A stretch of DNA of 64,000 nucleotides from Bacteroidales bacterium. Lineage in GTDB: Bacteria > Bacteroidota > Bacteroidia > Bacteroidales > NBLH01. Position numbers and translations under genes: made by a program. The DNA lies in assembly GCA_016937695.1 (NCBI GenBank), contig JAFGWC010000048.1, positions 61,777-125,776 on the forward strand, in the 5' to 3' direction. Positions within the stretch are counted from its first letter, which is position 1, and each line of letters starts with the position of its first letter. The notes beneath the pieces are model-generated. The model was not told where the DNA came from. It saw nothing but the letters and a program-made list of their open reading frames with translations, and did no database searches. Below are positions 7,502 through 12,505 of the stretch, piece after piece.

Positions 7502-8194
7502 TTATTCCGGCGACCACAGCGCTCGTGCTCCATTCCAATGATTTTCGTGTCCTAACTCAATAGATTCTACAAGAAAAGGTCTTTCTCTTGAAATTATAAA
7601 TTCAAGCGTTTCTGCAATATTTTCCGGAACTAAAATGGCAGCATTTTCATCATCATTCCAAGTATTAACTCCCCACGAATGAATTGTTGAAACTCTTATT
7701 TTTCCAGCAAGTTCATTTCGTAAAACATGTGCAAATTGCATAATTCCGGCTTTTGTAGCTGCATAAACAGATTCGCCAATTATTCTGTTTTTTGCCGACA
7801 TTGACGACATAAAAACTATATGCGGATTTTCACTTTTTAACAAAAGTGGAATTAACTTTTTAGTTAAAAGTAATTGCGAGTGCAAATTAAGTGTGATAAG
7901 TTTATTGATATCCTCATCTTTAAAATCAGAAAACTTTTCAATAACCATTACGCCAACATTATTTACTAAAACATCAAGCGTTTCGGTTTTTTCTTTCAAT
8001 TCATTTACAAAATCGTTAATATTATCAATATTTGTAAAATCCTGTGCAAAATAATGAGCATTCTTAATTCCTCTTTCTTTAAACGATTTTATATTTGATG
8101 CATGAAGAAATAATTCATTTTGGGTTGAAAGTAATTTAGCTTCGGCCATGCCAATTCCTTTACTTGCGCCAGTTATACATATTTTCCTACTCAT
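7502..8194 (-). CDS. SDR-family oxidoreductase
   Basis: 230 aa. Contains TGASKGIG (the TGxxxGxG NAD(P) motif), NNVG and YAATK (the YxxxK catalytic motif). Confidence 0.85.
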   Translation of the reverse strand: MSRKICITGASKGIGMAEAKLLSTQNELFLHASNIKSFKERGIKNAHYFAQDFTNIDNINDFVNELKEKTETLDVLVNNVGVMVIEKFSDFKDEDINKLITLNLHSQLLLTKKLIPLLLKSENPHIVFMSSMSAKNRIIGESVYAATKAGIMQFAHVLRNELAGKIRVSTIHSWGVNTWNDDENAAILVPENIAETLEFIISRERPFLVESIELGHENHWNGARALWSPE

Positions 8195-8599
8195 TTTTTC
8201 AGTTTATTTTTAATCGACAATATTATTATTTTTTTTCATCTTATCGATAAATTTTTCATAAAATTTTCCAATTCTTAACTATCTAATTAAAAAAGTTTAA
8301 ATTTATATTTAAAATACTAATGTCCGCCAAAAATGAATTAAGCCTTTAAAATTATCGCAACTATCAATTATTGAGCAAATTACAAAATTTAATACTTATT
8401 CCAATTTTTTCTGCACTAATAATATTGCAATAAAATATCATTAAAAGGCAAATCATTTACTAACAATAATCAATAAAAAAGTTAAGATATCTCAATAACT
8501 TTATCAAAGTATTAGAATAGTAAATGATAGAAAAAACATGGATTTTGCAATAACTTTGTAATAGAAAATAAAACAAAAAAATAAATATAGGAGGTAAAA

Positions 8600-9064
8600 A
8601 TGTATAGCCAGGAAATTGAAATAATTGAAGAAATTAAGTCTTTTCATAAGCATCTTAGCGAATTCTATACTAAACTTGCCAAAAAATCTGAAAACCAAAG
8701 AGTTAAAATGCTATTGGATTACTTAAGCCATAATGAAAAGCTACGAGAAGAATTTCTAATTAAATATGAAGATTTTACACCGAAAAGCAATATGAAAAAT
8801 TGGATACGTAAACCTACAAATAGTTTATCAACCAAAATTTCTGAGTGTTCTAAAAAAATAAAAATTCTTCCAAGCTATTCGGTAGATGATGTTTTTAAAA
8901 CAGCGTTGCACTTTAATGAATGCCTAGTGAAACTATATAAGTCATTAGCTATTGAAGAAGAATTCGATAGAAGTTTCACAAAAATATTTCATTATATGTT
9001 AAAAAGGACTAAACAACAAGAAATGAAACTGTCAAGAGATGTTAATTTACTCTATGACTTCTAA
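8600..9064 (+). CDS. hypothetical all-alpha protein, paralog 1 of a tandem pair
   Basis: 154 aa, preceded by AGGAGG 7 nt upstream of the ATG. It shares blocks with the next ORF (I.E.I..[FY]HK...E.Y..L.KKSE...VK.ML; ISEC; LHF[ND].CL..LY; IF.YM...TK). Confidence 0.65.
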   Translation: MYSQEIEIIEEIKSFHKHLSEFYTKLAKKSENQRVKMLLDYLSHNEKLREEFLIKYEDFTPKSNMKNWIRKPTNSLSTKISECSKKIKILPSYSVDDVFKTALHFNECLVKLYKSLAIEEEFDRSFTKIFHYMLKRTKQQEMKLSRDVNLLYDF

Positions 9065-9082
9065 CAAAGAAAGGAGCTAAAA

Positions 9083-9541
9083 ATGTATAAACTAAAAAGC
9101 GAAATAATTGAAAAAATTCAGCATTATCATAAGCAAGTATATGAATTATATTTGAGTCTTTATAAGAAATCAGAAGACCCAAAAGTAAAAGAAATGTTAT
9201 CACAACTGTATCAGCAAGAAATATTTAGAGAAAAATACCTTGAAAAGCATAAAAAAGTAGCAAAAGCACTGAATAGTTGGCTGTTTTATCCTTCAAATAA
9301 AATACAAAATAATATTTCTGAATGTTTAAGCCGCTTAAAAATAAAAAAGTCGAATTTAACTGTAAATGATGTTGCTGAAATAGAATTGCACTTTGATAAT
9401 TGCCTTATTCAATTATACGAAGCATTATCTAGTGAAGAAGGAAACAATGGAAATGTAACAAATATATTCTACTATATGATAAATAAAACAAAATTAGAAG
9501 ATAAAAACTTACAAGAAAAATTAGCTGAGCTACTAATTTAA
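9083..9541 (+). CDS. hypothetical all-alpha protein, paralog 2 of a tandem pair
   Basis: 152 aa, preceded by AAGGAG 7 nt upstream of the ATG. Colinear similarity to 8600..9064. Confidence 0.65.
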   Translation: MYKLKSEIIEKIQHYHKQVYELYLSLYKKSEDPKVKEMLSQLYQQEIFREKYLEKHKKVAKALNSWLFYPSNKIQNNISECLSRLKIKKSNLTVNDVAEIELHFDNCLIQLYEALSSEEGNNGNVTNIFYYMINKTKLEDKNLQEKLAELLI

Positions 9542-9777
9542 TTATTAGTAACCTGAGTTTGATATAAGAAAAAGATAAATTAACTAATACTTTTTGAATT
9601 AAAAAAACTTAAAATTACTTGCGTTATGGATAAAGCCGTTGCTAAATTGATTTGCCACTAAACTACTTAATATCAGCAACTTAACAATCTAAGAGGTAAA
9701 AAATTATCTAATCCTAACAAGTAATAATAGCGATATAAATTAAATTAAATTTTAAATCAAACTCAGGTTAGTAATAA
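9542..9777. repeat. 236-bp element bounded by 22-bp terminal inverted repeats (MITE-like or invertible-segment-like)
   Basis: Left arm TTATTAGTAACCTGAGTTTGAT is at 9542-9563. Right arm ATCAAACTCAGGTTAGTAATAA is at 9756-9777. The arms are reverse complements at 21/22 positions and lie 192 bp apart. Confidence 0.6.
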
Positions 9778-9989
9778 ATCAAATAAAATATTACCAACAA
9801 AACATGCTATTTGTATAATGCTAATTAATAAAAAAATTTACCGGTATATCTAATAAAATTATCAAGTGAATTTCTGATAAACTTTTGCCTTTACTGTAGT
9901 TAAAATTTATGATTGTTATATTCAAAAGTTTTAATATCTTTATATCATTAAGAAATAAATTGATATATCAAAGAACAAAAAAACTTTTG

Positions 9990-10682
9990 ATGAATCAGCA
10001 TATAATTAGAACTAACTGCATTGATTGTAACAGAATTTTAGATTGTTTTACACAAGTAATTGACGATTCTGAAGATTTTTTAAATCAGCAAAAAGTTCAA
10101 ATAAATTACAAAAAAGGCGAAACAATTATTAAAGAAGGCACTTCTGTTTCCTCTATTTATTATATTTTAGATGGTTTAGTGAAGTTATATTTAGAAGGCT
10201 CGAATAAAAATATAATGATTAAAGTTTTAAATTCTTCTGATTTTTTAGGATTAACATCTCTTTTCGGCGATAAAACATATAATTTTTCTGCAACAGCATT
10301 ATCTGATACAACAATTTGTTCAATTGAGCTGGATAATATAAGAAACCTGTTCGCTAAAAGCTGTAAATTTGCACATGAATCTGCCAGATGGTATTGTGAA
10401 AATTACAATTTAATGTTTACAAAATGTTATAATTTAGGGCTTAAACAGTTAAATGGAAGGCTTGCAAATACATTAATATACTTAAATGAAGAAAAATTTA
10501 AATCTGATGATATTTATACACATTTAACAAGAAAAGACCTAGCAGAATTATCAGGAACTTCAGTTGAAAGTGTAGTTAGAATTTTATCTGAATTTAATGA
10601 CGAAAAAATAATTAAAATTTCAGGAAAAAAAATTGAAATTACAAATTTGGATTTACTCAAAAAAATATGTAAAAGTGGCTAA
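9990..10682 (+). CDS. Crp/Fnr-family transcriptional regulator with an N-terminal Cys cluster
   Basis: cNMP-binding-like beta-roll (GETIIKEGTSVSSIYYILDGLVKLY) and a C-terminal HTH (RKDLAELSGTSVESVVRILSEF). The N-terminus has CIDCNRILDC. The ATG at 9990 is preferred over the ORF-track start at 9909. Confidence 0.8.
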   Translation: MNQHIIRTNCIDCNRILDCFTQVIDDSEDFLNQQKVQINYKKGETIIKEGTSVSSIYYILDGLVKLYLEGSNKNIMIKVLNSSDFLGLTSLFGDKTYNFSATALSDTTICSIELDNIRNLFAKSCKFAHESARWYCENYNLMFTKCYNLGLKQLNGRLANTLIYLNEEKFKSDDIYTHLTRKDLAELSGTSVESVVRILSEFNDEKIIKISGKKIEITNLDLLKKICKSG

Positions 10683-11453: not shown

Positions 11454-12050
11454 TTAATTTCTTGCAAATTGAATTAAAGCTGTAAAATCGCCTAAATCGG
11501 CAGCAAAAAGTGCTTTTAAGTAATTTGATCGAGATTTACTTTTTGAACTTAAAATATTACCTCCCCAAGAAAAAATTGGTTTCTCAAATCCTTTTTCAAT
11601 TAAAATATCAGCAATTAATCTTGAGTGTCTTCCATTTCCGTTTGGGAAAGGATGTATATTAACCATTCGGTGTTTAAATCTTATAGCAATTTCATCTTCG
11701 CTAAACACTTTATTCTTTATCCAAAACTGACAATCATCAAATAAGTGTCTTAGTTCTATGCCAATACGGAATTTATCAACACCAATATTTTTGTTTGTTT
11801 TTCTAAACTCGCCTGCCCAACGCCATGTTTGGTCAAACATTTTTTTATGTAATCTTTTTACAAAGGCTTCGCTTAAAATTTCTTCAACAGTAAATTTTTT
11901 CAGCATCGACCATTCAATCGCTTTTTCTATATTTTGTTGCTCAAACTCATCTAACTCGTATCTTGTAGTTATTGTTCTGATGAGGAGCCCTTCTTTCTCT
12001 TCATCGTCAAGAGACGTTTGAGTTTCGGTATATTCAAGTTCTAATCCCAT
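11454..12050 (-). CDS. Fic-family protein ('mobile mystery protein B' type)
   Basis: 198 aa with the Fic motif HPFPNGNGRHSRL. Its start overlaps the upstream HTH gene by 10 nt. Confidence 0.85.
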   Translation of the reverse strand: MGLELEYTETQTSLDDEEKEGLLIRTITTRYELDEFEQQNIEKAIEWSMLKKFTVEEILSEAFVKRLHKKMFDQTWRWAGEFRKTNKNIGVDKFRIGIELRHLFDDCQFWIKNKVFSEDEIAIRFKHRMVNIHPFPNGNGRHSRLIADILIEKGFEKPIFSWGGNILSSKSKSRSNYLKALFAADLGDFTALIQFARN

Positions 12051-12505
12051 AAATATTTTGGCATTTCGCTTTTTATTTTTTCTGCTCTGTCTTGTATTGC
12101 ATGTCTTAATCGCTCAATACTATTTTCCTGATCTTCAAGTTTCATGGTATTTGAGGTTCTGTAAACAATTTGTTCTGCAATTTCATAAGCTCTTTTCTCA
12201 ATCATTGCTTCAAGTGTTTTTTCTTTTGGAATAAAGCCATAAACCAATTTCATGTCAAGTGCATTTCCAACATCTTTTAATGTTTTTAAGGTAATTGAAC
12301 CATTTTTTTCTCTGGTTTCTATTTCCTTAACACTTTGAGCTGTAATGTTTAGTTTATTTCCCAATTGGCGAAGAGTCATTTTTAATGCAGAACGAGTCGA
12401 AAACACCCAGCCTTCAGATGGGATTATCAAATCGTCAATAATTGACAATTTCTGAAATTTTCTATCTAATTGCTCTATTAATAATTTTAACTTTAAATCT
12501 CTCAT
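12041..12505 (-). CDS. XRE-type HTH protein ('mobile mystery protein A' type), probable partner or antitoxin of the Fic protein
   Basis: 154 aa. HTH segment LKMTLRQLGNKLNITAQSVKEIE. Gene order and size fit the A/B pair. Confidence 0.7.
   Translation of the reverse strand: MRDLKLKLLIEQLDRKFQKLSIIDDLIIPSEGWVFSTRSALKMTLRQLGNKLNITAQSVKEIETREKNGSITLKTLKDVGNALDMKLVYGFIPKEKTLEAMIEKRAYEIAEQIVYRTSNTMKLEDQENSIERLRHAIQDRAEKIKSEMPKYLWD

Follow-up and report, generated by a model that had tools for sequence, protein, structure and literature searches.

Predicted ferritin-like tandem paralogues with conserved Shine-Dalgarno sites next to an FNR-type regulator gene in Bacteroidales

Results

A paralogous gene pair upstream of a Crp/Fnr gene

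The DNA analysed here, referred to as the window, is a stretch of 64,000 nucleotides with a GC content of 27.9% from a Bacteroidales MAG. Two adjacent genes on its forward strand, pA (8600-9064) and pB (9083-9541), are separated by 18 nt and encode proteins of 154 and 152 aa, respectively. BLASTP aligned the two proteins colinearly with 39% identity over 145 aa (E 4e-32). An earlier sequence-only reading of this locus had described the ORFs as colinear paralogues, which the alignment confirmed, and all shared blocks listed in that reading are contained in it. Judged by sequence, pA and pB are real genes and tandem paralogues. The spacer 5' of pA (8195-8599) measures 405 bp with ~19% GC, in agreement with the AT-rich intergenic region of ~400 bp described before, while the pair itself has 26-28% GC, equal to the window mean. 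No further family copies were found elsewhere in the window, and in the gap between pB and the downstream regulator gene fnr no remnant of a third paralogue or of a CoADR-like gene was detected. The single-copy gene of most Bacteroidales loci is of the pB type. A scan of positions 8150-10050 against Rfam gave zero family matches, and neither an intrinsic terminator nor informative sigma-70 promoter matches were found.

The region 3' of pB contains an inverted repeat (9534-9567 and 9752-9785) of 34 nt with 85% complementarity and an exact core of 15 nt, TAACCTGAGTTTGAT. The repeat extends over the stop codon of pB, 184 nt of the pB-fnr spacer lie between its arms, and folding of the region gave z = -4.1. 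A MITE, an invertible segment and a long hairpin are all conceivable; related loci showed no equivalent, and no Rfam match was obtained. Inversion of the segment was not supported, as it has the same orientation in two independent Logan assemblies. Both assemblies break at window position 9731. Inside the segment, at 9686-9707, lies a third TIR-like string, AATCTAAGAGGTAAAAAATTAT, which is 82% identical to the TIR of pA and lacks the ATG; neither an ORF nor protein similarity was found after it. Further downstream, just past the NUDIX gene that comes after fnr, a gene for a Fic-domain protein of 198 aa overlaps an upstream ORF of 154 aa by 10 nt (11454-12505, minus strand). This pair looks like a Fic toxin/antitoxin-type arrangement.

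A ferritin-like fold with a degenerate metal site

Searches of Pfam, NCBIfam and PDB sequences with pA and pB returned only noise and no direct match. Close homologues (seven for pA, 24 for pB) were all metagenomic or from Bacteroidales, and they are either unnamed or labelled 'rubrerythrin' by JGI. A profile built from the alignment of these 31 sequences (A1) retrieved 521 cluster representatives of ~150 aa each from a library of 1.84 billion proteins. Several of the representatives match Pfam Rubrerythrin over their full length with marginal scores, and one distant member (P0045) passes the cut-off of this family (24.3 bits vs 22.8). A second profile (A2), which joined the window proteins with distant family members, gave a full-length match (E 1e-5) to TM1526 (PDB 1vjx), described as a putative ferritin-like diiron-carboxylate protein, and weaker matches to EncB and symerythrin. 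The narrow clade profile matched TM1526 with a non-significant E of 0.076. As pA and pB themselves stay below the Pfam threshold and the matches come from the broad profile and a distant member, the homology is transitive.

AF2 predicted a four-helix bundle for pA (pLDDT 82.5) as well as for pB (pLDDT 89.3, pTM 0.84). The modelled helices span residues 4-29, 33-59, 95-121 and 129-153; together with an additional short helix in the cross-over, they form the up-down-down-up bundle with a long B-C cross-over that characterises the ferritin-like fold. The top foldseek matches were ferritin-like/YciF/TM1526 structures for the pA model and YciF/Dps/TM1526 for the pB model; they were all ferritin-like (YciF/YcfI, TM1526, Dps and ferritins), with TM ~0.6 and weak E-values of 0.02-0.4. 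The sequence-only reading had recognised all-alpha proteins and guessed at a four-helix or ferritin-like bundle, which the models bear out, and its statement that no family could be recognised is superseded by the profile searches and models. A hemerythrin-like reading was rejected: the ligand pattern H...HxxxE...H...HxxxxD is absent from the conserved columns of A1, and the Pfam, PDB and foldseek lists for pA and pB contain no hemerythrin matches. Based on the models, pA and pB are members of the ferritin-like fold class, and the profiles connect them transitively with the ferritin-like/rubrerythrin superfamily (TM1526-type), within which they would belong to a large uncharacterised branch. 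More distant members of the family occur in other phyla, e.g. in Oceanospirillales.

Canonical di-iron sites of the superfamily are built from six ligands, namely a Glu in helix A, Glu-x-x-His in helix B, a Glu in helix C and Glu-x-x-His in helix D. We located the corresponding positions by mapping conserved columns of A1 and A2 onto TM1526, with helix D placed by hand from the profile alignment. In this mapping, the helix A Glu corresponds to an invariant His16, the register being held by His16-x6-Tyr23. Helix B retains its Glu (Glu46), and its His is replaced by an invariant Arg49. The helix C Glu corresponds to Asp106 (Asn in pA) and the Glu-x-x-His of helix D to Thr137 and Gln/Glu140. Only one of the six canonical ligands is strictly retained, so that pA and pB lack the six-ligand set of the rubrerythrin/di-iron carboxylate family and are not canonical rubrerythrins. 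In the A1 alignment Cys83 in the cross-over helix is invariant, and His104 and Cys108 in helix C are near-invariant within the Bacteroidales clade. A mononuclear site formed by His16, Glu46 and Asp106 or a thiol switch between Cys83 and Cys108 are conceivable.

Conserved association with an FNR-type regulator

The gene fnr (9990-10682, plus strand) encodes an FNR-type Crp/Fnr regulator of 230 aa with the cysteines C10-x2-C13-x5-C19 and C110. Its start is most likely at 9990 and not at 9909, since this yields the length of 230 aa seen in the full-length orthologues (n = 42; 41 of 230 aa and one of 232 aa). The protein contains the Pfam domains PF00027 (cNMP_binding, 1.9e-19) and PF13545 (HTH_Crp_2, 3.8e-15), and NCBIfam places it as Fnr/FixK/FtrB-like at scores under the equivalog cut-offs. 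None of the four cysteines (window numbering) varies among the 42 orthologues. The FNR-like regulator with an N-terminal Cys cluster noticed from the sequence alone is therefore supported by both domain content and FNR-type Cys spacing.

To compare gene neighbourhoods, we used 49 loci of GTDB species genomes in which a relative of pA or pB is encoded. They come without exception from Bacteroidales MAGs and cover Rikenellaceae, Lentimicrobiaceae, Tenuifilaceae, Paludibacter, Microbacter and Draconibacterium. In ~44 of the 49 loci the ferritin-like gene has a close regulator orthologue as its neighbour in the same orientation, upstream or downstream of it depending on the locus; in the remaining loci, contig ends interrupt the neighbourhood or solely a more distant regulator paralogue is present. 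Directly 3' of the ferritin-like gene, ~12 loci carry a gene for a CoA-disulfide-reductase/NADH-oxidase-like (CoADR/Nox) flavoprotein, and genes for NifX-like, ApbC/Mrp, Fer4 and Fe-S carrier proteins are found near some relatives. Distant family members on longer contigs, e.g. from Oceanospirillales, have no Fnr neighbour, which indicates that the link to the regulator is specific to the Bacteroidales clade.

The closest relative locus (L004, 8001-10023; likewise L005 and L006) contains four tandem family copies of 154, 152, 134 and 151 aa, followed by a CoADR/Nox-like gene and then fnr. The 134-aa copy in L004 is preceded by a 10-nt Shine-Dalgarno (SD) sequence, AGGAGGTGAT (-20.2 kcal/mol), and one family copy in this type of locus has a TTG start. 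Small proteins of the NifX/NifB type are encoded beside pA-type members in L012 (6592-6855) and L013 (4241-4579), where they appear Nitro_FeMo-Co-like by eye, and in L063 (49-387 and 1811-2266), where they are Pfam-annotated. The recurrence of NifX/NifB-type and Fe-S-related neighbours of pA-type members hints at an iron-sulfur connection.

A predicted operator shared among family genes

A search for TTGAT-N4-ATCAA in the 300 nt 5' of family genes located an FNR-type box with at most two mismatches at -113 to -153 from the ATG in ~40 loci. Upstream of the adjacent family gene, these loci align to a core TTGAy-N4-mTCAA with flanking half-sites, which gives the family consensus CTCAA-N8-TTGAT-AAAT-CTCAA-N8-TTGAy. 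The element in the window (8468-8509, plus strand) reads ATCAA-N8-TTAAGATATCTCAA-N8-TCAAA, a degenerate copy of the consensus, with the core 14-mer TTAAGATATCTCAA at 8482-8495 (plus strand). A position weight matrix trained on 39 sites from related loci scored at least 14 bits in ~560 kb of loci exclusively upstream of family genes, including loci outside the training set, and it detected no other target within +/-6 kb in the 49 loci. In the 64-kb window it gave a single match of at least 8 bits, the element at 8468-8509. At 13.9 bits this box is the weakest of the set (17.9-50.9 bits for the training sites), and its left half-site is weak (TTAAG instead of TTGAy). This suggests that control may be weakened in this genome. 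A weaker extended copy of 15.8 bits was also seen in L063 (4856-4897), ~104 nt upstream of a family member with 40% identity that lacks an adjacent Fnr gene, which suggests regulation in trans in some genomes.

A putative Bacteroidetes-type -7 element, TAACTTTG (8551-8558, plus strand; consensus TAnnTTTG), is located 55 nt after the core of the FNR box, and TAnnTTT[G/A] recurs at 54-56 nt after the core in most related loci. The predicted leader of the pA transcript is accordingly ~35 nt long. With this start, the centre of the box would lie ~74 nt upstream of the transcription start and ahead of the core promoter, a position that fits activation better than repression and suggests that the regulator may be an activator at the box.

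Shine-Dalgarno sites are enriched in the family

Both genes are preceded by a strong SD: AGGAGGT at 8589-8595, 4 nt before the ATG of pA (-11.6 kcal/mol), and AGAAAGGAG at 9068-9076, 6 nt before the ATG of pB (-12.6 kcal/mol), both on the plus strand. Duplex energies were computed against the 16S tail GAUCACCUCCUUUCU, which is assumed and may not be that of the host. The window contains 62 non-overlapping ORFs of 100 aa or more, and we scored the 20 nt before each start. An exact match of at least 6 nt to the SD consensus was confined to pA and pB (2 of 62); the best of the other 60 ORFs reached -9.8 (with an uncertain TTG start) and -7.5 kcal/mol. The claims made from the sequence alone, i.e. 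a canonical SD at ideal spacing before each ORF and nothing comparable before other starts of the window, thus hold on this count.

The same contrast was found in related genomes. Among non-redundant loci, 39 of 53 family genes (74%) have an SD at -7 kcal/mol or stronger, compared to 28 of 483 other ORFs in the same loci (5.8%; Fisher p 2e-29) and to 31 of 483 (6.4%) in a mock window further upstream. Neighbouring genes do not exceed the level of the mock window, and the enrichment is therefore confined to the ferritin-like family. Exact matching of at least 5 nt to an E. coli-type tail gave 52% for the family vs 6.6% for the others, and after clustering of the proteins at 70% identity an SD was present in 17 of 23 clusters. 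All five pA-type orthologues carry one (5 of 5; -11.6 to -13.3 kcal/mol), and the motif GAAAGGAG of the pB site recurs in many orthologues, while about a quarter of the orthologues have no SD. The site is kept across Rikenellaceae, Lentimicrobiaceae, Tenuifilaceae, Paludibacter and others, whereas the flanking leader sequence is not conserved among family genes and diverges. The family therefore shows complementarity to the assumed 16S tail 4-9 nt from the start that is conserved and above background. The TIRs of pA and pB are also A-rich, the context used by ordinary Bacteroidia ribosomes, so the SD may add little or merely modulate translation.

Another non-ribosomal SD-led gene in Bacteroidales encodes a YedE/FdhT-like sulfur or selenium transporter of 405 aa. 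A strong SD, TAGGAGGTwAAAATG, is conserved in four loci (L015, 8457-9671; L016, 10100-11314; L021, 9822-11036; L024, 8443-9657), and the gene adjoins a second, divergently transcribed Crp/Fnr paralogue with a different Cys pattern. An SD-led ORF of 154 aa in L027 is unrelated to the ferritin-like family.

Discussion

Taken together, we favour, with some reservation, a model in which the tandem ferritin-like paralogues form a dedicated, SD-led target operon of the neighbouring FNR-type regulator and help in redox, oxygen or Fe-S stress. In this model pA and pB would represent a Bacteroidales-specific clade of small TM1526-type bundles in which the ancestral di-iron site was largely replaced, with two invariant cysteines and a His/Glu/Asp triad being kept. 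The regulator, which has the cysteine pattern typical of oxygen-labile [4Fe-4S] sensors, would sense O2 and is predicted to bind the private extended FNR-box element upstream of pA. The resulting mRNA would have a short, A-rich and unstructured leader with a strong SD. The proteins most likely act as non-catalytic or mononuclear-metal/thiol-based helpers in the stress response. The possibility of a redox- or O2-responsive module had already been raised from the sequence alone; given the conserved adjacency of the regulator and the private FNR-box element, it is the best reading.

Alternatively, pA and pB may be partners of the regulator itself, i.e. a co-sensor, an anti-activator or a factor that protects or repairs its Fe-S cluster, in a closed feedback loop in which the regulator has its own accessory protein as sole target. 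This would be in line with a DNA element private to the family within the 49 neighbourhoods, the regulator being always adjacent on the same strand, the small size of the proteins with their degenerate catalytic site and two invariant Cys, and the NifX-like, ApbC/Mrp and Fer4 genes near some relatives. However, the scan for the element covered gene neighbourhoods, so that the regulon may be larger, and a CoADR/Nox-like enzyme often encoded in the same operon points to an effector pathway instead; we regard this alternative as rather unlikely. It is very improbable that pA and pB are canonical di-iron peroxidases or ferroxidases of the rubrerythrin type. The JGI label of some homologues, the marginal Pfam Rubrerythrin scores of distant members and the ferritin-like fold would fit such a function, but with a single canonical ligand strictly retained in the TM1526 mapping, no rubredoxin domain and scores under the Pfam Rubrerythrin threshold, the window proteins do not.

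The SDs could also have no role in translation, either as remnants of a recent horizontal transfer from a phylum that uses SDs or as a product of chance in leaders rich in purines. Bacteroidia ribosomes are reported to be SD-blind (PMC7797042), and the wider family is present in other phyla, e.g. in Oceanospirillales, with the pA-type proteins being the most similar to these outside members. Against this, the pair does not deviate from the mean GC content of the window, which makes recent transfer unlikely and selection on the SD likely; the promoter element is of the Bacteroidetes type; and the SD is retained across several Bacteroidales families while the rest of the leader diverges, with an enrichment that neighbouring genes do not share. 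We therefore consider this explanation improbable. Recent horizontal transfer of the pair as such is unlikely in view of composition and conservation, and the suggestion of horizontal acquisition in the sequence-only reading is not supported, as the gene, its regulator and its SD are kept across these families.

To our knowledge, rpsU is the single case in Bacteroidia for which a function of SD-anti-SD pairing has been demonstrated. In vitro, SDs are ignored by Bacteroidia ribosomes, whose anti-SD is sequestered by bS21, bS18 and bS6 (PMC7797042). Absence of bS21 improves the translation of rpsU and of an AGGAGGU reporter (PMC9976891), and rpsU is the one gene with a strong SD sequence in F. 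johnsoniae (PMC13000453). Stimulation by ribosomes lacking bS21 or bS18 is described for rpsU and synthetic reporters only, in Flavobacterium johnsoniae (PMC9976891, PMC13000453), while in Bacteroidales SDs were reported ahead of rpsR and some rpl genes (PMC7797042). In the (incomplete) library searched, we came across no description of conserved SDs in a non-ribosomal family of Bacteroidia. As the anti-SD is normally hidden, the SDs of pA and pB probably tie translation to ribosomes whose anti-SD is exposed, i.e. those lacking bS21 or bS18, and it is plausible that the two genes are specially translated, as had been suggested before. It may be speculated, albeit at low probability, that such ribosomes of Bacteroidales have the ferritin-like family as a conserved client outside the ribosomal proteins, and that expression of the family needs both a redox/O2 signal sensed by FNR and a signal from ribosome composition. 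If true, this would constitute the first case in Bacteroidota of a stress module coupled to specialised ribosomes. A non-ribosomal family that keeps its SD also offers a natural substrate for asking what ribosomes with an exposed anti-SD translate, and when.

The analysis thus describes a widespread, uncharacterised ferritin-like clade with a degenerate metal site and a predicted dedicated FNR-type regulator in anaerobic Bacteroidales, in which oxygen and redox sensing are poorly understood, and it supplies a precise candidate operator consensus.

Comparison with known systems

The components themselves, a ferritin-like stress protein and an FNR regulon, are of known kinds and do not constitute a new category. 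With TM1526 (PDB 1vjx; COG1633/erythrin-like) and Pfam PF02915, pA and pB share the size of ~150 aa, the four-helix bundle and the long cross-over connection. The internal two-fold symmetry is common to both, and helices A and C retain their x6-Tyr motifs (H16..Y23, D106..Y113), whereas five of the six canonical ligands are replaced in pA and pB and the invariant C83, C108 and Arg49 are added. YciF/YcfI (DUF892) and Dps are the best structural matches (TM 0.58-0.63). They too are small ferritin-like proteins and are induced by stress, the function of YciF being unknown, but they show no detectable sequence similarity to pA and pB and are under different regulators (RpoS or OxyR). There is no indication that pA and pB assemble into iron-storing dodecamers as Dps does.

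The regulator has the same domain order as E. coli FNR and the same C-x2-C-x5-C...C spacing; the FNR cysteines are C20, C23, C29 and C122. Glu and Arg of the recognition helix are kept (ESVVR vs ETISR), and the core TTGAy-N4-mTCAA is shared with the E. coli FNR box, TTGAT-N4-ATCAA. In contrast to E. coli, the host belongs to a strictly anaerobic Bacteroidales lineage, and the element is extended by outward half-sites with N8 spacing and a 22-bp period. While E. coli FNR controls a global regulon, the element described here seems to serve a single small operon, and its sequence differs from the box of Bacteroides HcpR2, GTAAC-N4-GTTAC (PMC1274295).

The SDs of rpsU (bS21), rpsR and rpl genes of Bacteroidia resemble those of the family in being conserved despite a sequestered anti-SD. 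The pairing energies of pA and pB fall within the range of rpsR-type SDs (-8 to -12 kcal/mol; PMC9976891). With -8 to -13 kcal/mol, the family SDs pair more weakly and over a shorter stretch than that of rpsU (9-13 bp, -13 to -20 kcal/mol), the only experimentally tested case, and unlike rpsU, rpsR and the rpl genes, pA and pB do not encode ribosomal proteins.
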